From an uncultured bacterium (GTDB taxonomy: Bacteria > Lernaellota > Lernaellaia > JACKCT01): DNA of 64,000 bases. Of this stretch, positions 1,512 to 22,839 are shown piece after piece. The stretch covers positions 464 through 64,463 of the forward strand of contig CAZPJD010000225.1 in assembly GCA_964586775.1 (NCBI GenBank), given 5' to 3'. Numbering within the stretch: the first letter of the stretch is position 1; the number at the start of each line of letters is the position of its first letter. A program made the position numbers and the translations under genes. The notes under the pieces are model-generated. The model saw only the letters and a program-made list of their open reading frames with translations, made no database searches and was not told the origin of the DNA.

Positions 1512-2372
1512 TCATGCGGGCGATCCGGTGAGGTGATCGCGCAGCGCCTCGCGCCACGGGCGCATCGCGTATCCGGTCTCGCGCGTGAACCGCGAGCCGT
1601 CGAGCACCGAGTAGGCTGGGCGTTTCGCCTTGGTGGGATAGCGATCGCTCGAGCAGGCGACGACCTCGACGCCGTCGATGCCCGCGAATTCCACCACCGC
1701 GCACGCGAGGTCGTACCACGTCGCGAGCCCGGCGTTGACGATGTGGTAGATGCCCGACCCGTGGCCGTGCAGGACGCGCACGATCGCCTCGGCGAGATCC
1801 GCCGCGTAAGTGGGGCAGCCCGTTTGATCGTTCACCACCTCGAGCCGCGCCTGCTCGCGCGCCTTGCGCCGGATGGTGTCGACGAAGTTGCGTCCCAATC
1901 GCCCGTAGAGCCACGCCGTGCGGACGATGACCGCGTTTTGTGCGCCCGCGTCCATCACCGCGCGCTCGCCGTCGAGTTTCGATTGCGCGTAGATCGAAAT
2001 GGGATTCGGCAGGACGTCTTCCGTGATCGGCGCACTCGCCGTTCCGTCGAACACGTAGTCGGTGGAGATGTGCACCAAACGCCCGCTCTTTTTCGCGCAC
2101 GCGCGGGCGAGATGAGCCGGGATATCGACGTTGGCGCGCCTGGCGGCGTCGAGATTCGCCGGGTCTTCCGCGCCCTCGACGTCGGTGTATCCGGCGCAAT
2201 TGATGACCACGCCGGGCCGCAGGTCGTCCATCAACCAAGCGACGGTTTTCTCGTCGGCGAGGTCGCCGTCGGCGAGGTCCCATTCGACGGCGTTGTGACG
2301 ATAGTGTCGCAGCGCGAGAACCACCGCCCGCCCCAGCATGCCCCGCGATCCCGTGACCAGAACCCGCGTCAT
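1512..2372 (-). CDS. rmlD: dTDP-4-dehydrorhamnose reductase
   Basis: 286 aa. N-terminal Rossmann motif VLVTGSRGMLG. The length and conserved blocks (YxxxK region, STDYVFDG) are typical of RmlD/RfbD. Confidence 0.85.
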   Translation of the reverse strand: MTRVLVTGSRGMLGRAVVLALRHYRHNAVEWDLADGDLADEKTVAWLMDDLRPGVVINCAGYTDVEGAEDPANLDAARRANVDIPAHLARACAKKSGRLVHISTDYVFDGTASAPITEDVLPNPISIYAQSKLDGERAVMDAGAQNAVIVRTAWLYGRLGRNFVDTIRRKAREQARLEVVNDQTGCPTYAADLAEAIVRVLHGHGSGIYHIVNAGLATWYDLACAVVEFAGIDGVEVVACSSDRYPTKAKRPAYSVLDGSRFTRETGYAMRPWREALRDHLTGSPA

Positions 2373-2660
2373 GACCTCACCGCATCCCGCGTCATGGCCT
2401 CACCGCGCCGCGCTTCATCGCGCCCCCGCGCCCGTTCGTGTTTCGAATGCCCGAAAGTCGTCGCGATTATAGTTCATCGCGTGGATTTTGCACGGTGGTT
2501 TCGCGACGATCGATCCGCGCTCCAGGTGATCGATGACTTCCCGCGGGTCCGGCACATCGCCCCTATCGCCACGTACGTCCGTTATGCTAGTTTTGAACGC
2601 CTGTTCGACGACGCGAGTGATGAACCGGGTCGTCCCCCTGCGCGGATGGAGGATGTTGTC

Positions 2661-4712
2661 ATGTCCCGCAAAGCGGCGGCGCTGGCCGTCATGTTGACCG
2701 TTCTGGCCGTGTGCGCGGCCGTTTTCCTGGCGTCGCCCCGGGACGACCTCGCGGCGGCGGACGTTTTCGCCAACGGCGCGATCGGCCCGCACGCGATGGA
2801 CCCCGTCCACCCGGTCGTGTTGCCCGCTCCCCAGTGGCCGCCGCGCGTCGTGAGCGCGTTTCCCAACACGTCGTACTTCTACGCCTTCGACAAGATCTAC
2901 CTGTTCGGCTACATCGATGGCACGACCTACACGCTCTACAACGCGGGCGGATCGCCGATCCAGAGCGGCACGCTCAACGACGGCGAGCACGTCGAGTTCG
3001 CCATCCTCACGGGTGTGTATCGCCTCGACGCCTCTGACCTGATCGCCGTGCTCGTGGGCAACGCCGACAACAACATCGTCGGTTACTACGCCGTCAACGA
3101 ACACTCGCTCGCCGTGGGCAACAAGTTCTACAGCTACCAGTACGCCAGCGGCCCCGACATGAAGCAGATCGCGTTCGCCTATCAGAACGGCACGACGATC
3201 CAGGCGTTCAACATGAACACCGGCGCTTCGCTCGGCACCACCACGATCAACGCGGGCGAGCACTGGGTGCTCAACACCGTTGCGAGCCGAAACAAGTACA
3301 TCAAGACGATCGCCGACAAGCCGATCTCGATCCTGAATTTCAGCGACATCGGTTACGCCGTGCCCGCGTCGACGGGCCTGTTCTCGGGCAAGCTCTTCCT
3401 GGGATACGCGGGATCGACGAGCGGCGACGGCGACGTGGTCGTGTCGAGCTTTACCGACGGCAACACCGTGACCGTGACGAACTCCACCACGAACGCCGTC
3501 ATCTTCACCGGCACGCTCGATCGCGGCGAGATGTGGCGGCAGACCTTTGCCGACATGTACTTCAAGGTCGAGTCGTCGGCCAACGTGTCGGTGAGCGTCG
3601 TGCCCTACATCGGCGCGGCGGGCGATTACCACTACATGTCCATCGCGTCGGACGACGTGGGCACGCGCATCGGCATCGATTTCTACTTCACCACCGTGAA
3701 CGGCCAGATCGACGTCTTCGCGTACGAGGACGCGACCAACGTCACCGTCACGGATACGCGCGGCACGGTGGACCCCGGCGACGACCTCGTGGCGTGGTCG
3801 GGCGCGCTCGATCAGGGCGGCCACCAGATGGTGACGTCGTACATGACGCAGTGGCACGTCGCGGCCGACAAAGGCGTGTCGGTGTTCACGAGCTTCGGAA
3901 CGCAGGCGGGTTCGGAGTTCATCCCGCTCTACGGCATCATCCTCGAGTGCGACAACGACGGCGACGGCCACGACGGGCCGCAGTGCGACGGCGACGATTG
4001 CAACGACTGGGACGACACGATCTATCCCGGCGCCGAGGAGATCAACTGCGATCGCATCGATCAGGACTGCGACGGAGAGGACCAGTGCCTGTGCGAAGGT
4101 CCCGAAGACTGCGACGACGGCATCTTCTGCAACGGCGCGGAAGAGTGCGACACGCAGACCGGGCTTTGCGGGCCGGGCGATTTCCCGTGTCCCGACGACG
4201 GCCTGTATTGCACCGGCCGCGAGCAGTGCAACGAAACGACGGACACGTGCGAGCAAAAGCAGGTGCCGAACTGCCCGGACGACGGCGCGTACTGCAACGG
4301 CGACGAGCTGTGTGACGAAGACCTCGACATGTGCGGTCACACCGGCAATCCGTGCCCCGACGACGGAGTGTTCTGCAACGGCTACGAGGAGTGCAACGAG
4401 CTGTCCGACCTGTGCGAGACGAACGTCGTGTGTGAAGACGACGGCGCGTTCTGCAACGGCGCGGAGACGTGCAACGAAGAGGCCCAGACCTGCGACCACG
4501 AGGGCAATCCCTGCCCCTCGGGCGAAATCTGTCTGGAAGACACGGACGAGTGCCTCGCCGGGGACGATGACGACATCGAGCCGCCGGCCGACGATGACGA
4601 AGAAGATCCCGGTCCGACGCCCGCCGGCGAAAAGGAAGAGGATGCGGGCTGGCCCGAGGGTCAGGTGACCGGCGGCTGCTGCGGTTGCGGAGACAACGGC
4701 ACGGACGACTGA
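2661..4712 (+). CDS. Secreted protein with N-terminal signal peptide, central beta-rich domain and six C-terminal Myxococcus-type cysteine-rich repeats (CPDDGxxCNGxExC); acidic tail ending GGCCGCGDNGTDD
   Basis: Start fixed by back-counting 683 codons from the stop at 4710-4712. The N-terminus is hydrophobic (MSRKAAALAVMLTVLAVCAAVFLA). The repeated Cys spacing CxDDGxxCNGxExC occurs 6 times between aa 430 and 630. Confidence 0.7.
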   Translation: MSRKAAALAVMLTVLAVCAAVFLASPRDDLAAADVFANGAIGPHAMDPVHPVVLPAPQWPPRVVSAFPNTSYFYAFDKIYLFGYIDGTTYTLYNAGGSPIQSGTLNDGEHVEFAILTGVYRLDASDLIAVLVGNADNNIVGYYAVNEHSLAVGNKFYSYQYASGPDMKQIAFAYQNGTTIQAFNMNTGASLGTTTINAGEHWVLNTVASRNKYIKTIADKPISILNFSDIGYAVPASTGLFSGKLFLGYAGSTSGDGDVVVSSFTDGNTVTVTNSTTNAVIFTGTLDRGEMWRQTFADMYFKVESSANVSVSVVPYIGAAGDYHYMSIASDDVGTRIGIDFYFTTVNGQIDVFAYEDATNVTVTDTRGTVDPGDDLVAWSGALDQGGHQMVTSYMTQWHVAADKGVSVFTSFGTQAGSEFIPLYGIILECDNDGDGHDGPQCDGDDCNDWDDTIYPGAEEINCDRIDQDCDGEDQCLCEGPEDCDDGIFCNGAEECDTQTGLCGPGDFPCPDDGLYCTGREQCNETTDTCEQKQVPNCPDDGAYCNGDELCDEDLDMCGHTGNPCPDDGVFCNGYEECNELSDLCETNVVCEDDGAFCNGAETCNEEAQTCDHEGNPCPSGEICLEDTDECLAGDDDDIEPPADDDEEDPGPTPAGEKEEDAGWPEGQVTGGCCGCGDNGTDD

Positions 4713-5855: not shown

Positions 5856-5885
5856 TTGACACCGAAAAAACGCGCGTGATATGAA
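5856..5885 (+). promoter_or_regulatory. Putative sigma70-type promoter for the parA-like operon (TTGACA-N18-TATGAA)
   Basis: TTGACA at about 5856-5861 and TATGAA at about 5880-5885, roughly 36 nt upstream of the 5922 start. The intergenic region is divergent. Confidence 0.3.
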
Positions 5886-5921: not shown

Positions 5922-6725
5922 ATGGCGGTCATCTCGATCACCAATCAAAAGGGCGGTGTCGGCAAAACGACCACGGCGATCAACCTGGGCGCCGGGCTCG
6001 CCCGCAAGGGCCTGCGCGTGCTGATCGTCGATCTCGACGCCCAGTGCAACGCCACGCAGTTCCTGTACCGCCGACTCGAGGATGACGAGCCGGGCGTGTG
6101 CGAGGCGCTGCTCGAGGAACGCCCCCTCGCAAAGATCGTCGTGAAGACCAATGTGGAGGGCCTCGATCTCGCCCCCGCCGGCGAAAGTCTCGCCAACGCC
6201 GATCTCAACCTCGCGAGCCTGATGGGGCGCGAGCGCTACCTGGCGAATCTGCTGGAAGACAAGACCCTGCGCGCGTACGACCACATCCTCATCGACACCG
6301 GCCCCTATCTGGGGCTGCTCACCATCAACGCCTTCGTCGCCTCCGACGCGCTGATCGTGCCGGTGAGCTGCGAATATCTGCCGCTCCTCGGGCTCAAGTT
6401 CCTGCTCGAAACCGTGGACAAGGTGAAACGCAAGCTGCACCCCGATCTCGAGATCCTGGGATTCCTGCTGACCATGGTGGACCGGCGCGAAAAAATCACG
6501 GGCGAGGTCGAGCAGGTGATGGCGAGCCGGTTCGGGGATCGGTTGTTTCAGACCCGGATTCGGATTAATACCAAGCACAAGAGCGCGCCGCACGCCCGGG
6601 AGACGATCTTCCAGTATGAGGGTTCAGCCTCGGGGAAAGGGACGCAGGATTTTGCGGCCCTGACCGAAGAGGTGCTCGCGCGTCTCGATGGAGGCAAGAC
6701 CCGTCATGGCCAAAAAGCCCGGTAG
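5922..6725 (+). CDS. ParA/MinD-family ATPase (orphan ParA-like, no ParB adjacent)
   Basis: Deviant Walker A NQKGGVGKTT near the N-terminus. ParA/Soj-like length (267 aa). Confidence 0.85.
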   Translation: MAVISITNQKGGVGKTTTAINLGAGLARKGLRVLIVDLDAQCNATQFLYRRLEDDEPGVCEALLEERPLAKIVVKTNVEGLDLAPAGESLANADLNLASLMGRERYLANLLEDKTLRAYDHILIDTGPYLGLLTINAFVASDALIVPVSCEYLPLLGLKFLLETVDKVKRKLHPDLEILGFLLTMVDRREKITGEVEQVMASRFGDRLFQTRIRINTKHKSAPHARETIFQYEGSASGKGTQDFAALTEEVLARLDGGKTRHGQKAR

Positions 6726-7374
6726 CAAAGGCTTCGATTCCATCTTCGACGCGACCGACGCCAAGTCGGCCAAGTCGGCGCGCGCGCGCCGGACGACCGC
6801 CAAGTCGACCCCGCCGGCCGCGTCCGCCGCGTCTGCCGCCCACGCGGCCGAGGCCAAGCCCGCGAACGGCAACGGCAACGGCAACGGATTCGAGCCCTAC
6901 GAACTCGATCGCTTCTCGGTGGTGAAAACCCTGCTCAAGACGCACGAAGACGAGGTGATCTACCGCAAGACCAAGGAAGACCGCCTGCTCATCACGGGCA
7001 TCTCCCTCGTCGCGGGCGTCGCCATCGGCGCGTTCCTCATCCGCGCTTTGTGCGGTGGCTGCGCGGGAAGCTGGATCTATTCGTTCCTCTTCCGCGTCTT
7101 TTTCTCGCTCATGGTCGGCCTCACGGGCTTCACCATCGCGGCCATGATGGAACTCAACCGCACGCGCTTGCAGGACCTGCTCGCGATCGTCGTGAAGATC
7201 CACGAACAGTTCCGGCTCTTCGACGACGGCGTGTACGACAAGTCCGGCTCGGCGTTTCTGCCCAGCACCTACAAGTTCGTCGGCAGCATCAACGACGACG
7301 AGACCAACTACGCACTTCTCGTTTTGAAGGTCGCCTCGGTCATCACGGCCGTTTTCGTCCTCTTGTTCGTCTGA
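6706..7374 (+). CDS. Membrane protein with basic, Ala/Lys-rich disordered N-terminal tail and GNGNGNG tract; putative ParA partner
   Basis: The ATG lies 20 nt inside the parA 3' end, indicating translational coupling. The N-terminal 70 aa are basic and low-complexity. Three or four predicted TM helices follow. No known family recognised. Confidence 0.55.
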   Translation: MAKKPGSKGFDSIFDATDAKSAKSARARRTTAKSTPPAASAASAAHAAEAKPANGNGNGNGFEPYELDRFSVVKTLLKTHEDEVIYRKTKEDRLLITGISLVAGVAIGAFLIRALCGGCAGSWIYSFLFRVFFSLMVGLTGFTIAAMMELNRTRLQDLLAIVVKIHEQFRLFDDGVYDKSGSAFLPSTYKFVGSINDDETNYALLVLKVASVITAVFVLLFV

Positions 7375-7438: not shown

Positions 7439-9781
7439 ATGACGGATCGCGAAGCGCATTCCGATTCCCCGGCCCGTCGCGCCCCGCGCGCGTTCGGGGT
7501 GTGGTGCGTCGCGACGGGCGTCCTCACCGCGGTACAGCTCGCGCTGCCACTCGTCGGCGTGCCCGGTTACGAGGCCGCCCAAATCCAGACGATCTGGTTC
7601 GCCGTCGCCGCGGGTCACATCGCCATCGCGTGGGCAAGGCATCGCTCGAACACGCCCCTGCTCGCGACCGCCGCGACCGCCGCGCTGGCGACCGCGCTCG
7701 TCTGGCTGGCGTGCGTCGCGGCGCTGTTCGGCGCGGGATTCGCGCGCGGCGCATGCGACGCATCGCGCGACGTGTGGTGGTTTCTCATTCTGCCCGGCCC
7801 GGCCATTGCGCTGGGCGCGGCGTGGGGCGCGTTTCTGGCATCGCTCGGGCTTTCCGGTCGCCGAACGCACCTCGCTTATGTCGCCGTCGTCGCCGTCCAT
7901 CTCGCGTGGGAGCTCGCCGGCATCCGCACGCAGCCGATGACCTTTTCCTACAACGCGCTCCTCGGCTACTTCCCGGGACCGGTGTACGACCGCGCGGTGC
8001 GCATCGGCGCGACGCTTGCCGCCTCACGCGCGCTCGGCCTTTCCGAGGCGACGGCGCTCTTCGCACTGGCGGCCCTCGTCGAAGGAAAGCGCGGGCGAAA
8101 AGCCCTCGCCGCCGCGCCGGTTGCGTCGTTCGCGGCAGGTTTCGTCGCGGCGGTCGCGCTCGCGATCGTCGGACCGACCCTCGACGCCTCGACCGATCGC
8201 GCGAAGATCGACGCCACCCTCGGCGCGATTGCCCGCGGGCCGAACGTGACGATGCACTTCCCCGAGGATACGCCGCCGGACGAGGCGCGGCTGTTGCTCA
8301 TCGACCTCGAGCACCGGTTTACGCGCCAGGCGCGGTGGCTCGGCCTCGCCGAGCCCGAGCCCGTCGATGCGTACTACTACCGCTCGGCCCGCGAAAAGAA
8401 GCGGCTGACCGGCGCGGGCGACACGCAGTGGGCGAGTTGCTGGAACCGCGAGATGCACATGACGATCGAGCGGCCGCCGCACTCGGTTCTCAAGCACGAG
8501 GTCGTGCACGTGCTGGCCGAGCCGTGGGGAATTCCGGGGCTGGGGTTCTCGCGCGTGCTCGGCCTCACCGAAGGGCTCGCCGTCGCGTCCGAGGTCTGGC
8601 GCGAGGACTGGACGATCCCGTATTGGGCCGCCGCGATGAAATCCGTCGGCCGTCTGCCCGATCTCGCCGACATCTCGGGGCCCACGGGCTTCTGGCGACT
8701 TTCCGGCACACGCAGCTACCTCGCGTGGGGCGGGTTCCTCACGTGGCTGCGCGAGCGTCATTCGAACGACGCCATTGCGCGCGTGTATCGCACGGGCGAC
8801 TTTCGCGAGGCGTTCGGCAAGAGCCTTCGCGAGCTGGTGGACGAGTGGGAATCGTCGCTCGATGCGATTCGGGTCCCGCCCGATCTCCTCCGCGTCGCGG
8901 CGTATCGATTCTTCCGACCGTCTCTCTTCGAGGGCCGCTGCGCGCGAACCGTCGGCACGCTGGAAGAAGACGGCGCACGGGCGCTCGACGCGGGGCGCGC
9001 GCAAAAGTCGGTGCGTCTTTTCGCCGATGCGCTCGAACTTTCCGGCGGCGATTCGCGCAACCGGCGCGACTTCATGGCGGCCCTCGTGTCGGCGCGGAGA
9101 CTCGACCAGGCCGAGCGCGAGGCCGCAGAAATCTTCGCCGCGGAGGGCGCGGAGTTTTTCGCGACGCCCGAGCCTGGCAAGCCCGTTCACGGCAATCTGC
9201 TCGCGGCGACGCAGGCCCGGCTCACGCAGGCCGCCCTCGCGTGGCGTCGCGGAGATCGCGAATCCGCGCGGCGGTTTTACGAAGACGTGCGCGCATTCGG
9301 TGTGGGCGACGCGAATCGACGCGAGGCAATCGTGGCGCTTGACGCGCTCGGTTCCGCCGCGATCGAGCCGATGATTCGCCGCTATCTGGTGGAGCCCGAT
9401 GCCGAGGGCGCGCGTTGGCACGATCTGCACGCGGCGCTGGATGCCCGGCCCGATGACGCGGTGGCGCGTTACCTGCTCGGGCGCAGGCTCTACGGCGCGC
9501 GACGGTTTGACGACGCGGTGACGCACCTCGATGCCGCGCTCACGCTCGGTTTGCCGGACGACGCGCTGACGCGCGAGGCGTGGCGCACGCTGGGCCGCGC
9601 ACACTACGAGGCCGGGCGATTCGAGGACGCGGCGGTGGTGTTCACCGAGCGCCGACCCGCGAGTCTGTCGGAGGGTGCGCGCAAAGACGCCGACGAGTGG
9701 ATCGACCGCTGCCTGTTCGCCGCGACGTTCCCCGAAACCGTTTCGATCGAAAACGTCGGTGGAATGGGCGACGACGACTGA
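7439..9781 (+). CDS. Polytopic membrane protein with HExxH (gluzincin-like) metallopeptidase-type motif and C-terminal TPR-like repeats
   Basis: The N-terminal 260 aa are multi-TM. The motif HEVVHVL appears at about aa 365. The C-terminal third is helical and repeat-like (TPR-type). 780 aa. Confidence 0.55.
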   Translation: MTDREAHSDSPARRAPRAFGVWCVATGVLTAVQLALPLVGVPGYEAAQIQTIWFAVAAGHIAIAWARHRSNTPLLATAATAALATALVWLACVAALFGAGFARGACDASRDVWWFLILPGPAIALGAAWGAFLASLGLSGRRTHLAYVAVVAVHLAWELAGIRTQPMTFSYNALLGYFPGPVYDRAVRIGATLAASRALGLSEATALFALAALVEGKRGRKALAAAPVASFAAGFVAAVALAIVGPTLDASTDRAKIDATLGAIARGPNVTMHFPEDTPPDEARLLLIDLEHRFTRQARWLGLAEPEPVDAYYYRSAREKKRLTGAGDTQWASCWNREMHMTIERPPHSVLKHEVVHVLAEPWGIPGLGFSRVLGLTEGLAVASEVWREDWTIPYWAAAMKSVGRLPDLADISGPTGFWRLSGTRSYLAWGGFLTWLRERHSNDAIARVYRTGDFREAFGKSLRELVDEWESSLDAIRVPPDLLRVAAYRFFRPSLFEGRCARTVGTLEEDGARALDAGRAQKSVRLFADALELSGGDSRNRRDFMAALVSARRLDQAEREAAEIFAAEGAEFFATPEPGKPVHGNLLAATQARLTQAALAWRRGDRESARRFYEDVRAFGVGDANRREAIVALDALGSAAIEPMIRRYLVEPDAEGARWHDLHAALDARPDDAVARYLLGRRLYGARRFDDAVTHLDAALTLGLPDDALTREAWRTLGRAHYEAGRFEDAAVVFTERRPASLSEGARKDADEWIDRCLFAATFPETVSIENVGGMGDDD

Positions 9782-9830
9782 CGGTTCGCCCCTTGCCGCC
9801 GCGCGGCCCGTTCGATAACGTCCGAGACGC

Positions 9831-11189
9831 ATGACGACCGAACTGTCGATCGCCCGCGCGCGTGCCCGCGCCATCTGGCTCATCGCGGCGAGCCTCGCGT
9901 TCTTCGCTTGGATCTCGCCCGCGTTCGCGTTGCTGTTCGCCTTTACGACGCTCGTCGATCGCGCCCTCGCCCGCGCCGCCGCGCGCGAACATTCGCGGTG
10001 GATCGCCGCGGGCGCGAGCGCCCTCATGAACCTCGGCGCGATCCTCGCCTTGCACAACCTGCACCGATTCGCCGACGCCCTCGCGGCATGGCCCTCGCTG
10101 ATGGGCTCGGCGCTCAATGAGGGCGGCACCATCGCGGTGCTGCCGATCGGCTGGTCGCTGCTCTTCGCGCAAAACCTCGCCCATGTTCTGGATGTGGCGC
10201 GCGGGCGCGGGCAACCGACCGAGTGCATCCTCGAGCACGCGCTCGCCGCCGTGTTCTTCCCGCGCATGTGGGCGGGGCCGATGGTCGAACCCGTCGCGTT
10301 TGCCGCGCGAATTCGTCGGCCCGAGCGCCTCACCGGCGAACGCCTCGGCCGCGCGATCTGGCACGGCGCGCTGGGCGCGATCAAGATCGTCGCCGTCGCC
10401 GACTACCTCGCGCTCAACATGGTGGACAAGGTCTTCGATCTGCCCACGCTTTTCTCCACAACCGAGGTGGTTTTCGCGCTGGTCGCGAACGCGCTCGTCA
10501 TCGCCGCGATGTGGTCGGGCGCGTGCGACATCGCCGTCGCCGCCGGACTCGTGCTCGGCTTCGACCTGCCGCAAAGTTTCGCGTCGCCCGCCACGGCGAC
10601 GGGTCCGCGCGACCACTGGCGTCGGTTCCTCGCGCCGCTCACGGCCGCGCTTCGCGAGCACGTTTTCCGCCCGCTCGCGGGCGGGCCGAATGCTTCGCGC
10701 CTGCGCCGTGCACTCGCCGCGTTTGCGCCGCCGCTGCTGGTCGGCTGCGTCGTGGGGCCGAGCGAAACCACGCTCGCCTTCGGCGCGTTTGTCGGCGCGA
10801 CGCTGTTCGTCGCGACGCTCTTCGGACGCAAGACCTCGAACGACAAGCCGGGCATCGGCGCGCGCGCGTTCGGATGGGTTCTCACTTTCCTCGCCATGAC
10901 GGTCGCGTGGACGCTCTGGCGTGCGCACGACCTGCAAACCGTTTCCGATCTCGCGTCGATCCTGCCGCTCGGCATCTACGAAACGCCGAACCTGACCGCA
11001 ACCGTGATCGGCGTTTTTTTCGCGTCCCAGGTGGTCGCGTTCGTGCCCGCGCCATGGGTCGCGAAAACCCGCGATGCATTCGCACGTGCGCCCTGGCCCG
11101 TACAGGTCGCGGCGGGGCTCGCGGTGGCGTGGGCGCTTTGGCGCGTGAACGCGGTGTCGGAAGTGCCCTTCGTCTACGAGCGGATGTGA
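9831..11189 (+). CDS. MBOAT-family membrane-bound O-acyltransferase (AlgI/DltB-like)
   Basis: Polytopic. Conserved MBOAT block FFPRMWAGPMVEP (compare FFPQLVAGPIVR in AlgI/DltB) and a downstream invariant His region. Confidence 0.75.
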   Translation: MTTELSIARARARAIWLIAASLAFFAWISPAFALLFAFTTLVDRALARAAAREHSRWIAAGASALMNLGAILALHNLHRFADALAAWPSLMGSALNEGGTIAVLPIGWSLLFAQNLAHVLDVARGRGQPTECILEHALAAVFFPRMWAGPMVEPVAFAARIRRPERLTGERLGRAIWHGALGAIKIVAVADYLALNMVDKVFDLPTLFSTTEVVFALVANALVIAAMWSGACDIAVAAGLVLGFDLPQSFASPATATGPRDHWRRFLAPLTAALREHVFRPLAGGPNASRLRRALAAFAPPLLVGCVVGPSETTLAFGAFVGATLFVATLFGRKTSNDKPGIGARAFGWVLTFLAMTVAWTLWRAHDLQTVSDLASILPLGIYETPNLTATVIGVFFASQVVAFVPAPWVAKTRDAFARAPWPVQVAAGLAVAWALWRVNAVSEVPFVYERM

Positions 11190-11195
11190 GGATCG

Positions 11196-11696
11196 ATGCC
11201 GTCGTTTTTCGCCGATCACACCGACCTGGGCATCGGACATGCGCTCGTGACGATGGGCGATGACGACGTGGCCGCCGTCGCCGACATCATGATGGCCTCG
11301 GAGCCCTGGGCAAACTACGGCTACGAACGACGAACCATCGAGGACTTTCTGCACGGCACGATCGAGGCGGGCATGGCGCGCGTGGTGACGCCGTCGGGCG
11401 GCGCGCGCGAGGTCGTCGGCGTGGCGACGGTGCAGCCGGGTTTTTTAGGCGGGCGCTATCTGGAGCTGCTCGCGCTGCGCGCCGACCGGCGCGGGCGCGG
11501 CCTTGGGCGGCGCGTGATCGAGGCGATCTGCTACGAAATGCCCGTCCACATGCGCGACCTGTTTGTGCTCGTCGCCGATTCCAACGCGAAGGCCGTCGCG
11601 TTCTATCGTCACCTGGGATTTCGCGACGTGGGCGAGCTTCCCGGCCTCATCCGCCTCGGAAAAACCGAGCGCCTGATCTGGCTGCGGTTTCGATGA
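11196..11696 (+). CDS. GNAT-family N-acetyltransferase
   Basis: Acetyl-CoA-binding motif RRGRGLGRRVIE. 166 aa. Lies 6 nt after the MBOAT gene. Confidence 0.7.
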   Translation: MPSFFADHTDLGIGHALVTMGDDDVAAVADIMMASEPWANYGYERRTIEDFLHGTIEAGMARVVTPSGGAREVVGVATVQPGFLGGRYLELLALRADRRGRGLGRRVIEAICYEMPVHMRDLFVLVADSNAKAVAFYRHLGFRDVGELPGLIRLGKTERLIWLRFR

Positions 11697-15632: not shown

Positions 15633-15662
15633 GATTCCTGACGGGATCACCTGATTCCTGAC
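15633..15662 (+). promoter_or_regulatory. Direct repeat GATTCCTGAC x2 (20-bp spacing) upstream of the thiolase/fadJ pair; candidate operator
   Basis: Two exact 10-mers at about 15633-15642 and 15653-15662, roughly 70 nt upstream of the 15728 start codon. Confidence 0.3.
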
Positions 15663-15727
15663 AATGCGTCCGTGGCGTTTGGGGAGCAAGGCCCCCGCGC
15701 GGCGGCATGCGTCGAGGAGGCACCATC

Positions 15728-17032
15728 ATGGCGAAAAAATCCGCTCCCGCGAACGGTCGGCGCGTCGCGGTCATCGACGGCGTACGCACGCCGTTTCTGC
15801 GCGCGGGCACCGAGTTCAACGACCTCATGGCCTACGATCTGGGCCGCTACGCGGTCTCGGGGCTGCTGGGCAAGAGCGGCCTCGACCCGAACACCGTCGA
15901 CATGGTGATGATGGGGTGCGTGATCGCCGATCCCGCGACGTCGAACGTCGCGCGCGAGATCGTGCTCGCCACCGATCTGCCCGACCGCGTGCCGGCGTAC
16001 ACGATCAGCGAGGCGTGCATCTCGGCGAATCAGGCGATCTGCAACGCGGTGGATCAGATCGCGCGCGGCTACGGCGACGTGGCGATCGCGGGCGGCACCG
16101 ACATCACGTCGGACGTGCCGATCCGCTACCAAAAGCGCATGCGCCAAAAATTCCTGCGCACGCAAAAGGCCAAGGGCCTGAAGGACTACTACGAGATCTT
16201 CCACGACGTGAAGCCCGCGGATCTCGTGCCCGACCCTCCGGGCATCGCGGACTTTTTCACGGGGCTGTCGATGGGCGGCGCGTGCGACCGCATCTGCGCG
16301 CGGCTCGGCGTCACCCGCGAGGAGCAGGACCAGTTCGCGGCGCGCTCGCACCAGCTCGCGCATCAGGCGGCGGAGTCGGGCCTCTTCGACGACGAGGTCC
16401 TGACCGTCGCGCCGCCGCCGCATTTCAAGCCGGTGACGCGCGACAACGGCGTGCGCGGCGACACCACCTACGAAAAGATGGCGAAGCTGCGGCCCGCCTT
16501 CGACAAGAACTACGGCACGGTGACCGCGGGCAACGCGTCGTTTCTGACCGACGGCGCGGCGGCGGTGCTGCTGATGAGCGAGGAGAAGGCGAAGGACCTG
16601 GGCTACAGGCCCAAGGCGTACATCATCGGCCACGCGTTTCGCGGCACCGATCCGCTCGAGGAGATGCTGCTCGGCCAGACCTACGCCACGCCCATGGCGC
16701 TCGAGCGCGCGGGGATCTCGTTCGAGGATCTGGGCGTGCTCGAGATCCACGAGGCATTCGCCGGGCAGATGGTGGCGACGGTCAAGCTGCTCGAGTCGAA
16801 AGAATTCGGCGAGAGCCTCGGCATGGGCCGCGCGATCGCGAAGAAGGTGAATCCGGACATCCTCAACATCCACGGCGGATCGCTGTCGATCGGGCATCCC
16901 TTCGGCGCGACGGGCGCGCGGCTGATCCACACGTGCGCGAACCGGCTGCAACGCGAAAACAAACGCTACGGGCTCGTGGCCGCGTGCGCCCTGTCGGGCC
17001 TCGGCAACGCCACCGTGCTCGAACGGGCCTGA
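15728..17032 (+). CDS. fadI: Acetyl-CoA C-acyltransferase (3-ketoacyl-CoA thiolase, FadI-like)
   Basis: Thiolase signature regions: active-site Cys region ISEACISANQAI and C-terminal GxxGAR...CxxxG. RBS gaggagg lies 8 nt upstream of the ATG. Confidence 0.85.
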   Translation: MAKKSAPANGRRVAVIDGVRTPFLRAGTEFNDLMAYDLGRYAVSGLLGKSGLDPNTVDMVMMGCVIADPATSNVAREIVLATDLPDRVPAYTISEACISANQAICNAVDQIARGYGDVAIAGGTDITSDVPIRYQKRMRQKFLRTQKAKGLKDYYEIFHDVKPADLVPDPPGIADFFTGLSMGGACDRICARLGVTREEQDQFAARSHQLAHQAAESGLFDDEVLTVAPPPHFKPVTRDNGVRGDTTYEKMAKLRPAFDKNYGTVTAGNASFLTDGAAAVLLMSEEKAKDLGYRPKAYIIGHAFRGTDPLEEMLLGQTYATPMALERAGISFEDLGVLEIHEAFAGQMVATVKLLESKEFGESLGMGRAIAKKVNPDILNIHGGSLSIGHPFGATGARLIHTCANRLQRENKRYGLVAACALSGLGNATVLERA

Positions 17033-17044
17033 GGGGGGACGACC

Positions 17045-19249
17045 ATGGTGTCGAAAAACGCGGTCGCTTCGGCGAAAAACGTGCTGAAGAACGTGCTCAC
17101 GATCGAGCGACGCGACGGCGGCGTCGCCCTCGTCTGGTTCGACGATCCCGACGACGTCGTCAACAAGCTCTCGACCAGGGTGCTTGGTGAGTTCAACGCC
17201 GTGATGGACGAGCTGGAGGCCGACGTGGCCGTCAAGGCCGTGGTGTGGATCTCGCGCAAACCCGACTGCTTCATCGCGGGGGCCGACATCGCGGAGATCC
17301 AGACGTTTTCCACCGCGGCCGACGCCGAGCGCATCAGCCGCACCGGCCATGCTGGTTTTGCGCGTATCGAAAAGAGCAAGAAGATTCACATCGCGTGCGT
17401 GTGCGGCGCGGCGCTGGGCGGCGGCACCGAGTTCGCCCTCGCCTGCCACTACCGCATCGCCGCCGATGCGCCGAAGACGATGTTCGGCCTGCCCGAGGTC
17501 AAGCTCGGTCTGTTGCCCGGCGGCGGCCGCACGCAGCGCCTTCCCCACGTGGTTGGCCTCGAGGCCGCGCTCGACCTGATGCTCACCGGCAAAAACGTCT
17601 TCGCGAAAAAGGCGCTCAAGATGCGCCTGGTGCACGAGGTCGTCTCGCCGTGGGGCCTGCCCGAGACGGCGGTCAAGGCTGCGGCGCGCCTCATCAAGGA
17701 CGGCATCCCGACGGGCAAGACCGACCCCGACTGGAAAGAGAAGATCAAGCAGGACGTCGGCCCCGCGCGCAACCTGATCCTCAAGACCGCGCTCGAAATG
17801 GTCGAACGAAAGACGTACGGCAACTACCCCGCGCCGGGGCACATCATCCGCGCGGTGCGCGCCGGGCTCGAAACGCCGGGCGAAAAGGGCTACGCGGCGG
17901 AGGCGAAGCTCTTTTCCGAGCTCGTCGTCACGCCGCAGTCCCGCCAGCTCGTGAACCTGTTCTTCGCGATGACCTCGAAAAAGAAGAGCGCGCTCGCGGC
18001 CAAGGCCGCGCCGGTGCGTCATCTGGGCGTGCTCGGCGCGGGGCTCATGGGCTCGGGCATCGCGCTCGTGTCGTCGGAGCAGGCCGAGACGCCGGTGTGC
18101 GTGAAGGACATCAGCCCCGACGCGCTCGCGGCAAGCCAGAAGTACGTGTTCCGCGCGATGGACGAAAAATTCCGCAAGCGCGCGATCAACCGCCGCGTGC
18201 GCGACCGGGTGGTCGCGCGGGTACACGGCGTGCTCGATTACGACGCCCTCGGCCGCTGCGATCTCGTCGTCGAAGCCGTCTTCGAGGACATCAAGATCAA
18301 GCACCAGGTGCTGCGCGAGGTCGAGGCCGTCACGCGCCGCGACTGCGTCTTCGCGTCGAACACGTCGGCGCTGCCCATCACGCAGATCGCCGCGGCCTCG
18401 AAGCGGCCCGAAAACGTGCTGGGCATGCACTACTTCTCGCCGGTCGAGAAGATGCCGCTGCTCGAGGTGATCCGCACCGAAAGAACGAGCGAGAGGGCGC
18501 TCGCCACCGCCGTCGCCTTCGGCATGAAACAGGGCAAGACGGTGATCGTCGTTCAGGACGGCCCGGGCTTTTACACCACACGCATCCTCGCGCCTTACAT
18601 GAACGAAACGTGCCTGCTGCTCGCCGAGGGCGCGACGATCCCCGATCTCGACCGCGCCATGCTCGCGTGGGGATTCCCCGTCGGGCCCGCGGCGCTCTTC
18701 GACGAGGTGGGCATCGACGTGGCGGCGCACGTGGCGGGGTTTTTGGGCGAGGCGCTGGCCAAAATCCACGGTCCCACGCCGACCAGCGACGGCATGATCA
18801 AGCTCGCCGCCGCCGGATACAAAGGACGCAAGAACAAGAAGGGCTTCTACCGCTACGACGCCGCGCCCGCGTCGCGCCTGCCGCTGGGGCTGGGCAAAAA
18901 GAAGGGCAAGCTGCCGAACGAGGCCGTGTACGCATTCTTCGGCGATCGGCCGCGCAAGACCGTGAGCGCCGCCGAGATTTCGGACCGGCTCGGCCTGGTG
19001 ATGGTGAACGAGGCGGCGTCGTGCCTGCAGGAAAAGGTGATCGAGACGCCGCAGGACGGCGACCTCGGCGCGATCCTGGGCCTCGGGTTCCCGCCGTTTC
19101 GCGGCGGGCCGTTCCGTTATGTTGACGAGCTCGGCGTGGCGAAGGTGGTGGAAAAACTCGAGCGCCTCGCCGACGCGCACGGTGCGCAGTTCGCGCCCGC
19201 GAAGATTCTGGTCGAATACGCCAAGAAGGGGCGGACGTTTTACAAATAA
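17045..19249 (+). CDS. fadJ: Fatty-acid oxidation complex alpha subunit (enoyl-CoA hydratase/3-hydroxyacyl-CoA dehydrogenase, FadJ-like)
   Basis: 734 aa. N-terminal crotonase fold. Central NAD-binding motif LGVLGAGLMGSGIA. 3-hydroxyacyl-CoA dehydrogenase C-terminus. Immediately downstream of the thiolase. Confidence 0.85.
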   Translation: MVSKNAVASAKNVLKNVLTIERRDGGVALVWFDDPDDVVNKLSTRVLGEFNAVMDELEADVAVKAVVWISRKPDCFIAGADIAEIQTFSTAADAERISRTGHAGFARIEKSKKIHIACVCGAALGGGTEFALACHYRIAADAPKTMFGLPEVKLGLLPGGGRTQRLPHVVGLEAALDLMLTGKNVFAKKALKMRLVHEVVSPWGLPETAVKAAARLIKDGIPTGKTDPDWKEKIKQDVGPARNLILKTALEMVERKTYGNYPAPGHIIRAVRAGLETPGEKGYAAEAKLFSELVVTPQSRQLVNLFFAMTSKKKSALAAKAAPVRHLGVLGAGLMGSGIALVSSEQAETPVCVKDISPDALAASQKYVFRAMDEKFRKRAINRRVRDRVVARVHGVLDYDALGRCDLVVEAVFEDIKIKHQVLREVEAVTRRDCVFASNTSALPITQIAAASKRPENVLGMHYFSPVEKMPLLEVIRTERTSERALATAVAFGMKQGKTVIVVQDGPGFYTTRILAPYMNETCLLLAEGATIPDLDRAMLAWGFPVGPAALFDEVGIDVAAHVAGFLGEALAKIHGPTPTSDGMIKLAAAGYKGRKNKKGFYRYDAAPASRLPLGLGKKKGKLPNEAVYAFFGDRPRKTVSAAEISDRLGLVMVNEAASCLQEKVIETPQDGDLGAILGLGFPPFRGGPFRYVDELGVAKVVEKLERLADAHGAQFAPAKILVEYAKKGRTFYK

Positions 19250-19353
19250 CGCGAACGCACCAGCAAACGCGCTTGCCAACGCGTCCCCGCGTGCGCACCA
19301 TCGGCCCGACGGGAAGCGGGAGCCGGGACTCCCCGCGGGCTGCAAACTCGCCG

Positions 19354-19380
19354 GGAACGCCGGGCAGGCGTTCCGTTCGG
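19354..19380 (+). terminator. Possible terminator hairpin after fadJ
   Basis: GGAACGCC-gggcag-GGCGTTCC stem-loop followed by gttcggttcg. Only moderately T-rich. Confidence 0.3.
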
Positions 19381-19398
19381 TTCGACTCCGAATCCCGT

Positions 19399-19576
19399 CT
19401 GTGCGGAACCCTCGCAGGTCATGTGGCACAGCCGCCCCCGGCGGTGCGGAACCTTTGCGGGTCATGTGGCACAGCCGCCCCCGCGGTGCGGAACCTTTGC
19501 GGGTCATGTGGCACAGCTGCCCCCCGGCTGTGCGGAACTCTTGCGGGTCATTTGGCACAGCCGCCCCCGGCTGTGT
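19399..19576 (+). repeat. Tandem array of four REP elements (about 42-bp units, each with an 8-bp-stem hairpin CACAGCCG-cccc-CGGCTGTG)
   Basis: Four near-identical units of the form ctgtgcggaacc(t/c)ttgcgggtcatgtggcacagccgcccccgg read directly. The array lies immediately 5' of the RAYT gene. Confidence 0.85.
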
Positions 19577-19588
19577 AAAACTCCGTTC

Positions 19589-20089
19589 ATGTCGCAACGT
19601 GAACCCAAAGCCCGATACCGGAGAAACCTTCCGCACATACAGGCTGCCGGAAAGACATTCTTCATCACGTTTCGAACGCGCCGGGATGTCGAATTGCCCG
19701 GGGACGCTCGCTCGCTGGTGCTTCAGCATTGTCTGTACGATCACGGGCGGCGCTACGAACTGATCGCCGCCGTGGTGATGCCGGATCACGTGCATCTCCT
19801 GCTCACGCCGAGACTCGAAGACGCGCTCGCCCCGTTCAGACTCGCCGCCCTCATGTCGGGAATCAAAGGATCGTCGGCACATTCCGTGAACAAAGCCATG
19901 GGACGACGCGGCCCATTGTGGCAGGACGAATCATTCGACCATGTCCTGCGTTCTGACGAAGATGCGCGTCAGGTCGGGGAATACATTTCGCTCAACCCGG
20001 TGCGCAAGGGGCTCGCCGAAACGCCCGAAGGGTATCCATGGCTTTGGCGGCGGTGGGTGGAGGGAGAAAGAGTCCAGCAGGGGCCATGA
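19589..20089 (+). mobile_element. REP-associated tyrosine transposase (RAYT; IS200/IS605 Y1 HuH family)
   Basis: HuH motif PDHVHLLL and catalytic Tyr in EYISLNPVRKG. 166 aa. Flanked by REP repeats in opposite orientations. Confidence 0.85.
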
Positions 20090-20220: not shown

Positions 20221-22560
20221 TCAGATCTCGTACCAGCAGCCGTCGGCGGCGGTCATGAAGGCGTCGTCGTCGCTGTCGAGCTCGCCGGACTGATCGAGGT
20301 CCGCGCCATCGCACCAGCTATTGCCGGCGTCGCACGACGCACCCTCACCGAAGTTCGTCCACGCCGTGTCGAAGTCGGCCTGATCGTCGGCGTCCACATC
20401 GCCGTCGCCGTCGAGGTCGGGCCGCTCGCAACCCAGAACCGCCCACGAGCAGTCGAGCACGGTGGGTTCCATCGCGCAGTTGGGGATCTCGTTCAGATAG
20501 ATCGCCCCGCCGAAGCCCTGGTGCGTGATGTTGGGAATCTCCTCCCAGTCGCCGTCGACGTTGACGACCTCGTAATGATCGCCGTTGCGCTTGATCGGCT
20601 TGTCGGCCTCGGTGGGGAAGCGGTCCCAATAGCGGTCGTAGGTTTCCGGCCGATCGGCGTAGCCGTTCACCTCGGCGAGGATCTGGCTCCACAAATCCGC
20701 GTCGCTCCACAGCGCGCGCGGCGTGCTGTCGCCGCGATTCAGCACGTCCTCGAACACATCCTGATAGCGCTCGGCGCGCACCCAGCCCTGCGGGTCGTAA
20801 TCGGCGTTGCCCACGCCCGCGATGTGCGCGTACTGGGCGACCTTCTGGAGTTCCTCGATCGCCTCGTTCACGTAATTCGATGGCGGCACGGGCTGCGCCT
20901 GCGCCCAGTCGAGCGTGAGCTGCGCGCTGATGCGGTGCAGCTCGGTGATGTGGAAGAGCGCCTCGCGCGCCTCCTGCAGCAGATCGCCCTTGTTGGCGAG
21001 CTGCGCGTAATACACCAGCGCGAAGGCGGCCATCTCGGGCTGGTCGGTCGCGTCGGCGATCTGCATCAGGATGTCGGCCACGCTCGACCCGCCCAGGTTG
21101 ACGGCGATGCGCATGAGGTCTTCGAGCGACTGGCCGAGGATGTTGAGGTTGTAAATGTCGCCCCAGCCGAGGCCGATGTAGGCGTCATCCATGTTTTCGC
21201 AGGTCTTCGTCAGGTTGCCGGGAACCGGGATGCCCAGCGCCTCGAGCAGCATCTTGATCGCGATGATCTCATACGACCCCGGCGTCTCGACGGGCTCCGT
21301 GGGCGAGGTCAGGCCGTCCGCCGACATCGCCTTGGCCATGTACGACATCTGGCAGGAATTCATCGAGCCGAGCCACTCGGGGCCCTCATCCGCGCCGTCG
21401 GGGCGGATTTCGCCGGCGACGATCAGGTGGTCCTCGTCATAGGGCTCGAACTCGCCCACCGTCATCAGGTTGTAGCCCTCGCCGATGGTGCGATCGCCGA
21501 TGCGCTGCCCGGCGGCCCACGCGCGCTCGGCCGAGGCGCGCACGTCGGCGTCGGCGCCGGCGTCGTTCATCGCCTCGAGCGCGGCGAAGTAGCCCACGCC
21601 GAAATCGGGGAAGTTGTCGCGGCTGTTGTGATTGCCCCAGAAGTAGCCCTCGAAGGGCCCGAGCTGGCTGATCATGTACGACGAGCAGCAGTTCGAGATG
21701 CGCAGGTAGTAGGGCATCTCCTCGAAGACGAATGTCACGGCGTAGTCGCCGGGGCGCAGGATCGACTCGATGCGGAAGTAGTGGTCCGTCGGTTCGCCGT
21801 TGATGGCATACACACCATCGGAGAAGAACGCGTTGATGATCTCTTCTTCGAGCGTGGGCGAGTAGTCCTCGGCGGGGTCGATGGGCGCGCCGTCCAGCGT
21901 GCGCGTCACGGTGCCGCCGGGGCCGTCGATGGTGACGGTAAATCCGGTCTGCCACTCGCGGCAGGTGAGACCGTCGATGCCCTGGATTTCCTCGGCGTAG
22001 GCGAGGCCCTCGAACTGGCGGATCGCGGTGAGGGCCAGTTCGCGCGTGCGGAAGATCTTGTAGGCCTGATACGCGTTGAAGGCTGAGAAGCCGATCCAGT
22101 TGTTGTCCACCGGGTGGAGCTGGACTTCGTAGTCGCTGCCGTCCTTGGCGATGTTCGTGTGGCCCAGCGTGTGCGCGGGCACCACGTCGCCGACGAGCAT
22201 GAAGCGGTTGTACGCCTTGAGCGTGCGGCCGATGCGCTCCTTGTAATAGAGCTTGAAGGCGTCGGCCTTCGTGGTCGGATTCACCCACGGATCGAAGGGG
22301 ATGTCGTCGTCGGCGTCGTCGTCCGTCGTATCGTCGTCGGTCGTGTCGTCATCCGAGGTGTCGTCGTCGCCGGTGTCGTCATCCGGCAGCGGGGGGAACG
22401 TGTCGTCGTCGCCCGTGTCGTCGTCCGCGGCGTCGTCATCCGCCGCGTCGTCGTCCGGGGTGATCGTCGTCGGCCCGGAATCGTCGTCGTCATCGCCGCC
22501 GCACCCCGCGACAAACGCCAGAGCCATCACCACCGCCACCGCCCAACCCCACCTGTTCAT
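20221..22560 (-). CDS. Large lipoprotein with poly-Asp N-terminal linker (lipobox VAGCGG then DDDDD...); function unknown
   Basis: Start at MNRWGWAVAVVMALAFVAGC. An acidic tract DDDxxDDD of about 90 aa follows the lipidated Cys. A 650-aa globular domain with no recognised family follows. Confidence 0.6.
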   Translation of the reverse strand: MNRWGWAVAVVMALAFVAGCGGDDDDDSGPTTITPDDDAADDDAADDDTGDDDTFPPLPDDDTGDDDTSDDDTTDDDTTDDDADDDIPFDPWVNPTTKADAFKLYYKERIGRTLKAYNRFMLVGDVVPAHTLGHTNIAKDGSDYEVQLHPVDNNWIGFSAFNAYQAYKIFRTRELALTAIRQFEGLAYAEEIQGIDGLTCREWQTGFTVTIDGPGGTVTRTLDGAPIDPAEDYSPTLEEEIINAFFSDGVYAINGEPTDHYFRIESILRPGDYAVTFVFEEMPYYLRISNCCSSYMISQLGPFEGYFWGNHNSRDNFPDFGVGYFAALEAMNDAGADADVRASAERAWAAGQRIGDRTIGEGYNLMTVGEFEPYDEDHLIVAGEIRPDGADEGPEWLGSMNSCQMSYMAKAMSADGLTSPTEPVETPGSYEIIAIKMLLEALGIPVPGNLTKTCENMDDAYIGLGWGDIYNLNILGQSLEDLMRIAVNLGGSSVADILMQIADATDQPEMAAFALVYYAQLANKGDLLQEAREALFHITELHRISAQLTLDWAQAQPVPPSNYVNEAIEELQKVAQYAHIAGVGNADYDPQGWVRAERYQDVFEDVLNRGDSTPRALWSDADLWSQILAEVNGYADRPETYDRYWDRFPTEADKPIKRNGDHYEVVNVDGDWEEIPNITHQGFGGAIYLNEIPNCAMEPTVLDCSWAVLGCERPDLDGDGDVDADDQADFDTAWTNFGEGASCDAGNSWCDGADLDQSGELDSDDDAFMTAADGCWYEI

Positions 22561-22839
22561 CGCATGTCTCCCGGTACCGAGTCCTTGAGGGATCGACATG
22601 CTACCAGAGTCGCGTCCCGCGCCCAAGGGTCGGTCGGCACACGCCCCAATCCGCTCCTAATGTCCCGCACGCCACGAACAAACCGATCGGTTCTGGATAT
22701 TCTTGTCCGGATAGGGCTCAATGACATCCCTTAGTGATTTTCATTACACGTCGATTTGACCTCGGTCAAAGACGGATGAACCGCGATTCAGTGATAAGAG
22801 GCCGAACGCCGGGCGAACCGGCGCGCGACGGGGGACGCA

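Follow-up and report, generated by a model that had tools for sequence, protein, structure and literature searches.

ATPases of the ParA/MinD superfamily position chromosomes, plasmids, carboxysomes, chemoreceptor arrays, flagella and the divisome, and many orphan ParA proteins have been described to which neither a partner nor a cargo has been assigned. In the ParA–ParB system of Myxococcus xanthus, a short motif at the N-terminus of ParB (L11, R13, L15, L18 and I19) binds a hydrophobic pocket of ParA made up of V116, L150, L152, L155, L187 and L192, and an R238E variant of the same ParA has been used to abolish DNA binding (PMC12462528). More generally, the ParA-like members of the superfamily bind DNA non-specifically through a basic surface, and ParA proteins that lack a ParB are joined to lineage-specific partners in the McdA–McdB, PpfA–TlpT, ParC–ParP and PomZ–PomX systems, where the basic, disordered N-terminus of the partner is expected to activate the ATPase while the remainder of the protein binds the cargo (PMC11407121, PMC10241942, PMC13170346). 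In the reviews and papers searched, the described partners of ParA/MinD ATPases are soluble or reside in cytoplasmic bodies. Here we describe two overlapping genes, parA (positions 5922–6725) and a gene for a small membrane protein (6706–7374), on the forward strand of a 64,000-nucleotide stretch of contig CAZPJD010000225.1 from an uncultured bacterium of the lineage Lernaellota, hereafter the window. The reading that we modestly favour, on the balance of the sequence evidence, is that the pair is a two-gene positioning module of the ParA/MinD type whose activating partner is an integral protein of the inner membrane. The original prediction for this DNA had pointed to a parA gene and an overlapping next gene at 5922–7374; both are present, and the overlap of 20 nt is exact.

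The two genes form an invariant unit. Related loci were compared as a set of distinct loci given as 16 (the window, L001, L002, L004, L006, L009, L011, L013–L018, L020, L021, L027 and L029; additional loci duplicate some of these), and in all 16 a ParA orthologue lies directly 5′ of the small gene, so that a pairing glimpsed by the original prediction in one genome recurs in its relatives. The upstream orthologues are 64–74% identical to the window ParA in the examined loci, and up to 95% identical in the protein search, and the genes farther out from the pair vary between loci. In each of the 16, the start of the small gene falls −20 to +3 nt from the parA stop codon, and a purine-rich stretch resembling a Shine–Dalgarno sequence (GGAGG, AGGAG, GGGAG or GGGGGA) is found inside the last parA codons, no more than 20 nt before the small-gene start. 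This is the pattern of coupling that would be expected for two proteins made together in fixed proportion, and a gene that adjoins an ATPase gene and is conserved with it is what one would look for in an activating partner.

In the window itself the small gene has two in-frame ATG codons, at 6688 and 6706. Since all homologues begin with MAKK or MPKK and a GGAGG (6690–6694, forward strand) stands 11 nt before 6706, within the last parA codons, the second ATG was taken as the start, which gives a protein of 222 amino acids beginning MAKKPGSKGFDSIFDAT…; the original prediction had placed this gene correctly and made its product one residue too long, at 223. The reading frame is a real gene rather than a chance one, with homologues in 19 clusters at E-values of 1e-35 to 1e-139, and the G+C content at third codon positions (GC3) is of the coding type for both parA (0.84) and the small gene (0.89). 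About 35 nt 5′ of the parA ATG lies a promoter-like element (5856–5885, forward strand), read from the sequence as TTGACA, an 18-nt spacer ending in TGa (the extended −10 type) and TATGAA; it was missed by a consensus scan because the −10 hexamer ends in A, and with low confidence it may act as the promoter of parA.

The parA product, identified from the open reading frame (ORF) listing, its translation and direct reading, is a 267-residue protein that has the deviant Walker A motif found in Soj/ParA-type ATPases, NQKGGVGKTT, with the signature lysine at position 10, the P-loop lysine at 15 and an aspartate at 39. Lys10 and Lys15 are invariant in 14 ParA orthologues as well as in the ParA proteins of M. 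xanthus and Thermus thermophilus, and in the same alignment catalytic Asp39 is kept, as is the Walker B region. The Pfam models AAA_31 (7e-52, 176 bits against a cutoff of 27) and CbiA (1e-23, 84 bits against a cutoff of 25) both match, so that motif and curated models point together to membership of the deviant Walker A superfamily. The best NCBIfam matches are to ParA, RepA, BcsQ, MinD and BY-kinase models, and all of them score far under their cutoffs, so the protein falls in no named equivalog. Among solved structures it comes closest to M. xanthus ParA (8RAY, 3.5e-46) and T. thermophilus Soj (1WCV), and it shares with the ATPase of the ParA–ParB system its size, its Soj-type sequence (approximately 45–50% identity) and a partner gene immediately downstream. 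Identities in the homologue search run unbroken from 95% to 52% with no clean gap, so the clade to which this ParA belongs is not delimitable by identity alone; it is distinguished from canonical Soj by DLDAQCNAT in place of DLDPQGNA, by the signature APAGESLANADLNLA and by an extra-basic RIRINTK(H/Q)(K/R) stretch, which in the window protein is the conserved RIRINTKHK of residues 212–220.

When the window ParA is aligned with 8RAY, the residue numbering of which was checked through the D60A mutation of the crystallised chain, the pocket that receives the ParB peptide is represented by L95, L130, L132, I135, K167 and L172. Five of the six positions (all except 167) are hydrophobic, and R238, through which M. 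xanthus ParA binds DNA, is matched by K218; the pocket residues and K218 are conserved over the 14 orthologues. Neither the alignment nor the hydropathy profile reveals a C-terminal amphipathic helix in this ParA, which ends …EVLARLDGG(K…), and the protein therefore appears to be of the ParA type, with a basic C-terminal surface, rather than of the MinD type with its membrane-targeting helix. From the missing helix we infer that it would bind the nucleoid rather than the membrane. The comparison with MinD–MinE is thus partial: in both cases an ATPase with a small activating partner would organise something at the membrane, but here the ATPase has no membrane-targeting helix and a ParA-type basic surface, and it is the partner that bears the membrane anchor.

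The small protein begins with a conserved island at residues 1–17 (6706–6756, forward strand; MAKKPGSKGFDSIFDAT), defined by alignment, whose consensus can be written M-x-K-K…Φ-D-[ST]-I-F-x-x-T (Φ, hydrophobic) and in which M1, D11, I13, F14 and T17 are invariant over 19 sequences; a wider alignment of 27 sequences repeats the picture of conservation for the protein. There follows a disordered, low-complexity linker of net basic charge at residues 18–66 (6757–6903), rich in Ala, Ser, Lys, Arg, Pro and Asn-Gly, where mean pairwise identity falls to 0.17 from the 0.56 of the N-terminal peptide. In homologues the linker is 31 to 85 residues long, and its net charge, which varies from +1 to +23, is always positive. 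The tail of this protein is, in sum, a tether, variable and basic, that carries a conserved short linear motif. At the end of the linker a tandem (AAC GGC)4 repeat (6870–6893) encodes NGNGNGNG; it is restricted to the closest relatives and looks prone to slippage, which may alter the length of the tether.

Beyond the tether lie a juxtamembrane helix of the pattern HE.E.LYRK.KEDR that continues into the first transmembrane (TM) helix, TM1 (residues 69–115, 6910–7050), TM2 continuing into a predicted cytoplasmic helix, ELNRTRLQDLL…KIHE (residues 123–168, 7072–7209), a predicted cytoplasmic segment LPxTYKF(I/V)GSxNDDETNY (residues 186–202, 7261–7311), and the C-terminal hydrophobic helix TM3 (residues 204–222, 7315–7371), all on the forward strand and, for the three hydrophobic elements, located by AlphaFold, hydropathy and alignment. 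Conservation differs strongly between segments, with mean pairwise identities in this part of 0.65 for residues 67–93, 0.73 for 143–170 and 0.88 for 185–202. The juxtamembrane helix has eight invariant residues (H80, E83, Y86, R87, K88, K90, E91 and D92), the LPxTYKF segment, which is the most conserved part of the protein, has twelve (P186, Y189, K190, F191, G193, S194, N196, D197, D198, E199, N201 and Y202), and TM3 carries an invariant lysine, Lys208. An AlphaFold model built with the 19-sequence alignment has a predicted local distance difference test score (pLDDT) below 50 at residues 1–66 and helices at 69–115, 123–168, 188–197 and 199–221; it is of low confidence overall (pLDDT 60), and a Foldseek search with it against the Protein Data Bank (PDB) returned meaningless coiled-coil matches only. 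Hydropathy gives membrane-length segments at 94–112, 124–142 and 204–222. The earlier description of a basic low-complexity tail of about 70 residues followed by TM helices is thus borne out by the disordered residues 1–66 and the three hydrophobic segments. Seventeen Lys or Arg residues among the 93 ahead of TM1, together with a TM1–TM2 loop of 11 residues, argue for an N-in orientation, and the likely topology is a cytoplasmic N-terminus, a short external loop, a cytoplasmic segment of about 60 residues and a C-terminus on the outside.

It is the N-terminal island that recalls ParB. K8-G9-F10-D11-S12-I13-F14 of the small protein has the spacing of R13-x-L15-x-x-L18-I19 in the M. xanthus motif, so that in both partners a basic residue followed by Φ-x-x-Φ-Φ is set in a disordered N-terminal region, and on the side of the ATPase hydrophobic residues occupy five of the six pocket positions and the DNA-binding position is again basic. 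A short, conserved peptide with basic residues in a disordered N-terminal region is the feature by which an activating partner might be recognised, and the idea of an N-terminal adaptor advanced in the original prediction fits an island of conservation standing before a linker that cannot be aligned. The differences from ParA–ParB are equally clear: the partner here has three TM helices and has no ParB/Srx, helix-turn-helix or CTPase domain, there is no parS, and in its motif an Asp and a Thr are invariant while the basic position varies. The likeness to McdA–McdB, PpfA–TlpT, ParC–ParP and PomZ–PomX is one of organisation (a ParA orphaned of ParB with a lineage-specific partner whose N-terminus is basic and disordered); the partners in those systems are soluble or in cytoplasmic assemblies, while the one described here is membrane-integral and has no sequence similarity to them.

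A mechanism can be envisioned in which ATP-bound ParA dimers sit on the nucleoid through a basic surface that includes K218 and RIRINTKHK. The membrane-anchored partner, with its N-terminus in the cytoplasm, would reach them with the K-rich Φ-D-S-I-F peptide on a flexible linker of 30–85 residues, and the peptide would bind in the hydrophobic cleft where the subunits of the ParA dimer meet, in the manner of the N-terminal peptide of ParB. Binding would stimulate ATP hydrolysis and release of ParA, and through successive rounds of this cycle the membrane protein, together with anything bound to it, would be placed or spread relative to the nucleoid. Proteins held by the conserved cytoplasmic and intramembrane surfaces of the partner would be positioned along with it. 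The most likely cargo would be the product of the neighbouring gene, a seven-TM protein with an HExxH metallopeptidase domain and tetratricopeptide repeats (TPR) facing the periplasm, and in one clade a protein with REC-like and PATAN parts may add a regulatory input.

The neighbouring gene (7439–9781, forward strand) encodes a 780-residue protein, the probable cargo or co-factor of the module, that combines seven TM helices, an HExxH…E domain and TPR repeats. Its AlphaFold model (pLDDT 92) has the TM helices at residues 17–248, an α/β domain at 254–480 and the TPR region at 481–765. The zinc-binding motif, located by alignment, is HEVVH (8495–8509, forward strand), and H353, E354, H357 and E378 are invariant in 38 sequences of the family, which matches the HExxH…E signature known from MA-clan metallopeptidases; two cysteines, C106 and C501, are invariant or nearly so. 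The ligands expected of a gluzincin, HExxH and a downstream Glu, thus seem to be in place. The Pfam model Peptidase_MA_2 matches five of the 38 members, below threshold in each case, and fold searches returned TPR proteins only, so the peptidase assignment rests on the motif. By the positive-inside rule the peptidase–TPR part would be periplasmic. In this arrangement, an MA-clan HExxH domain followed by TPR and facing the periplasm, the protein resembles BepA-type peptidases, from which it differs in its membrane anchor, which consists of seven TM helices and has conserved periplasmic loops, in matching Peptidase_MA_2 only below threshold and in having no sequence relation to M48 that could be found.

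A homologue of this gene lies downstream of the pair in 13 of the 16 loci, with an identity of 51% in L004, 47% in L013 and about 30% in a more distant clade. L001 has no adjacent copy; a 47%-identical orthologue is found on another long contig (L026) of the same sample, ERZ21869602, and the tetranucleotide signatures of the two contigs, the closest match to L001 among the loci, correlate at r = 0.978, which suggests that one genome is probably the source of both. In the more distant clade a gene for a DUF4388/PATAN protein of 420–590 residues, most copies of which also have a weak receiver-like N-terminus, stands between the small gene and the 780-residue homologue, and a PATAN gene is present in 10 of the 16 loci. 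At L027 (3618–6782) the PATAN part is fused to the seven-TM HExxH–TPR protein in a single product of 1054 residues, so the two proteins would appear to be functionally linked. The 780-residue family as a whole is unannotated and reaches well past the loci that have the pair. Among its distant members, at L022, L023, L024 and L025, two adjoin a divergently transcribed PilZ gene, and one, from a Polyangiaceae metagenome-assembled genome (MAG), begins 4 nt inside the end of lon.

The original prediction had named a different envelope complex as the possible cargo, the machinery of a downstream MBOAT gene. This part of the proposal did not survive, for the conserved downstream gene is that of the seven-TM HExxH–TPR protein, and the MBOAT-like gene (9831–11189), a weak match to the DltB model over most of the model (28.5 bits against a cutoff of 375) with no Pfam MBOAT match, has no homologue in 21 related loci; MBOAT as cargo was rejected on this ground. 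It is followed, 6 nt apart, by a gene for a GNAT acetyltransferase, which is likewise found in no related locus, and the two genes (9831–11696), which come after the module, look like a lineage-specific addition.

The immediate surroundings of the pair offer no other candidate for a partner. No ParB, MinE or other known partner is encoded among the 10 flanking and 20 further ORFs of the window, no meaningful repeats were found around the pair, and the best parS-like sites in the window have two or three mismatches, lie more than 40 kb off and are at chance level, in agreement with the original prediction, which had seen no ParB, parS-like repeats, MinE or other known partner nearby. The best of these sites, TGTTCGACGTGAAACG at 47836–47851, has two mismatches, also at chance level, and falls inside a DUF1015 gene. 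The 30 ORFs and the repeat and parS scans therefore show neither the adjacent ParB or other centromere-binding protein nor the parS sites or iterons of a ParABS partition system. Its other genes are ordinary chromosomal ones, for an arginyl-tRNA synthetase, TatBC, NadA, thiolase and FadB-like proteins and cytochrome c552, and no RNA of Rfam was found in it. A mobile element was rejected as an explanation in view of this housekeeping neighbourhood, and a defence system because the sole PADLOC match is to the P-loop. Elsewhere in the window, three large ORFs with coding-type GC3 have no Pfam match (1533–4712, forward, 1059 amino acids; 20221–22626, reverse, 801; and 29979–31547, reverse, 522), and three antisense ORFs (2415–4499, 8024–10384 and 15647–19882) were set aside as by-products of high G+C content, each overlapping an ORF of coding-type GC3 on the opposite strand.

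The family of the small protein is, as far as the searches reach, very small. The protein matches no model in Pfam, NCBIfam or PADLOC, so that no unrelated family lays claim to it, and tblastn against plasmid and phage collections gave no match. A word-indexed search of 5.8 billion proteins returned the 19 clusters, and an exhaustive profile (hidden Markov model) search of 1.84 billion representatives returned 14 members. The latter search disclosed no distant family behind them, with the borderline exception of one 170-residue protein (P0031, E 3.6e-4), which is like the membrane core and has neither the N-terminal peptide nor the basic tail; it hints at an older membrane module to which the tail was joined later. 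All sources are MAGs of uncultured bacteria labelled “Deltaproteobacteria bacterium” or “bacterium”, several of them carrying FEN-1099 names, and one locus comes from Candidatus Alcyoniella australis, of the phylum Candidatus Lernaellota (= FEN-1099). The paper that names this phylum deals with its metabolism only (PMC9324843).

Several observations weigh against the positioning module as we have drawn it. The sixth pocket position, 167, is Lys or Arg throughout the ParA clade, instead of the Leu found in M. xanthus. The basic residue at the ParB-like spacing is present in only about half of the homologues of the small protein, several of which have Arg at the first hydrophobic position or Glu at the basic one, and a phmmer search with the 24-residue N-terminal peptide against PDB sequences matched no ParB, so the likeness to ParB is one of pattern and architecture, not of demonstrable homology. 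As to the cargo, the pair stands without a neighbouring 780-residue gene in three of the 16 loci, and the family of that gene also occurs in Myxococcota-like MAGs that do not have the pair, for which reason its assignment as an associated cargo, drawn from gene neighbourhood, is suggestive only. The conserved surface of the 780-residue protein is, moreover, nearly all periplasmic, so that contact with the small protein would need to be intramembrane.

Set against these are the weaknesses of the competing explanations. It is conceivable, though in our judgement unlikely, that this ParA is the chromosome-segregation ParA of its host, with ParB and parS elsewhere, and that the small protein is a membrane landmark or sink in the manner of TipN, HubP or PopZ rather than a cargo adaptor. 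Membrane-anchored landmarks that interact with ParA are established in Caulobacter and Vibrio, where TipN and HubP, respectively, are large polar scaffolds that contact ParA-family ATPases; they are not known to be encoded with parA or to use an N-terminal activating peptide. The window ParA is indeed very like Soj, as its E-value against M. xanthus ParA attests, and it retains most of the pocket for the ParB peptide and the basic DNA-binding residue. However, a landmark that bore a ParB-like activating motif would be in competition with ParB, the clade has substitutions of its own (DLDAQC for DLDPQG, K/R167 and RIRINTKHK), translational coupling and one-to-one synteny are typical of ATPase–partner pairs, and the flanks are ordinary chromosomal sequence with no sign of an origin region. 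We consider it rather improbable that the pair is instead a transient tether between nucleoid and membrane, in which the membrane protein is itself the end point, the Lys/Ala-rich linker could touch DNA, and the outcome is nucleoid organisation or control of the division site with no separate cargo. Some linkers are indeed reminiscent of histone H1, with a charge of up to +23 and, in P0018, a weak match to Pfam HC2, and L001 and L009–L011 have the pair with no neighbouring 780-residue gene. In many members, though, the charge of the linker is low (+1 to +3), so DNA binding is not a conserved property, and the most conserved parts of the protein are the membrane-adjacent cytoplasmic segments (0.73–0.88), which would suggest a conserved protein partner.

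The gene fusion that links the 780-residue and PATAN proteins raises a further question, namely whether the small protein might be a subunit or assembly factor of the seven-TM peptidase complex that has no contact with ParA at all, the ATPase acting by way of some other component (the PATAN protein, for example) or sharing no more than the operon. PATAN-domain regulators do contact other NTPases (bioRxiv 10.1101/2021.06.11.447907). We nevertheless regard this as very unlikely, for parA and the small gene are the sole invariant pair (PATAN occurs at 10 and the 780-residue gene at 13 of the 16 loci), and a conserved N-terminal peptide on a disordered tail would have no obvious role in an intramembrane complex. 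Least credible by far is that the pair is a split tyrosine kinase and adaptor of the CapA/CapB type, or a membrane-protein insertion pair similar to Get3/Get2, the second of which is brought to mind by the layout of Get2, with an N-terminal capture motif, a long linker and three TM helices. Among the BY-kinase models of NCBIfam, eps_fam and Wzc match the window ParA weakly, and its P-loop is matched by Pfam ArsA_ATPase, but these matches are either far under their cutoffs (eps_fam 59 bits against 108, Wzc 35 against 1068) or cover only residues 9–40, and its KGG lysine is the signature typical of ParA/MinD. Both readings were rejected on defining features: a BY-kinase would have a C-terminal Tyr cluster and a partner with a Wzz domain, neither of which is present, and the external loop here is only 11 residues, while the 267-residue ATPase has no counterpart of the client-binding helical insert of Get3.

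A positioning module with a membrane-integral activating partner thus remains the account that we prefer, and it can be extended, more tentatively and with less than even confidence, to the proposal that this is the first ParA/MinD system of its kind: a nucleoid-bound ParA would read a “luggage-tag” peptide extended from the inner membrane by a flexible basic tether, and the chromosome would so serve as the ruler by which an envelope-spanning machine is placed, built of the seven-TM periplasmic metallopeptidase–TPR protein with PATAN-type signalling input, in the uncultured phylum Lernaellota and its relatives. As far as the searches reach, an integral membrane activating partner for a ParA-type ATPase has no description in the literature, and the claim of the original prediction that the module was previously undescribed holds within the databases and papers searched. 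Two of the families involved are unannotated, those of the small three-TM protein and of the seven-TM HExxH–TPR protein; the module does not amount to a new principle.

If the proposal is true, a membrane protein in the role of partner would show how a gradient based on the nucleoid can organise proteins of the envelope, and the pair would provide a compact two-gene module for the synthetic positioning of membrane proteins, by means of an N-terminal tag on a tether of variable length. For the two families, the second of which is widespread in Myxococcota-like MAGs, it supplies a first working hypothesis of what they may do, and both are represented in an uncultured phylum.

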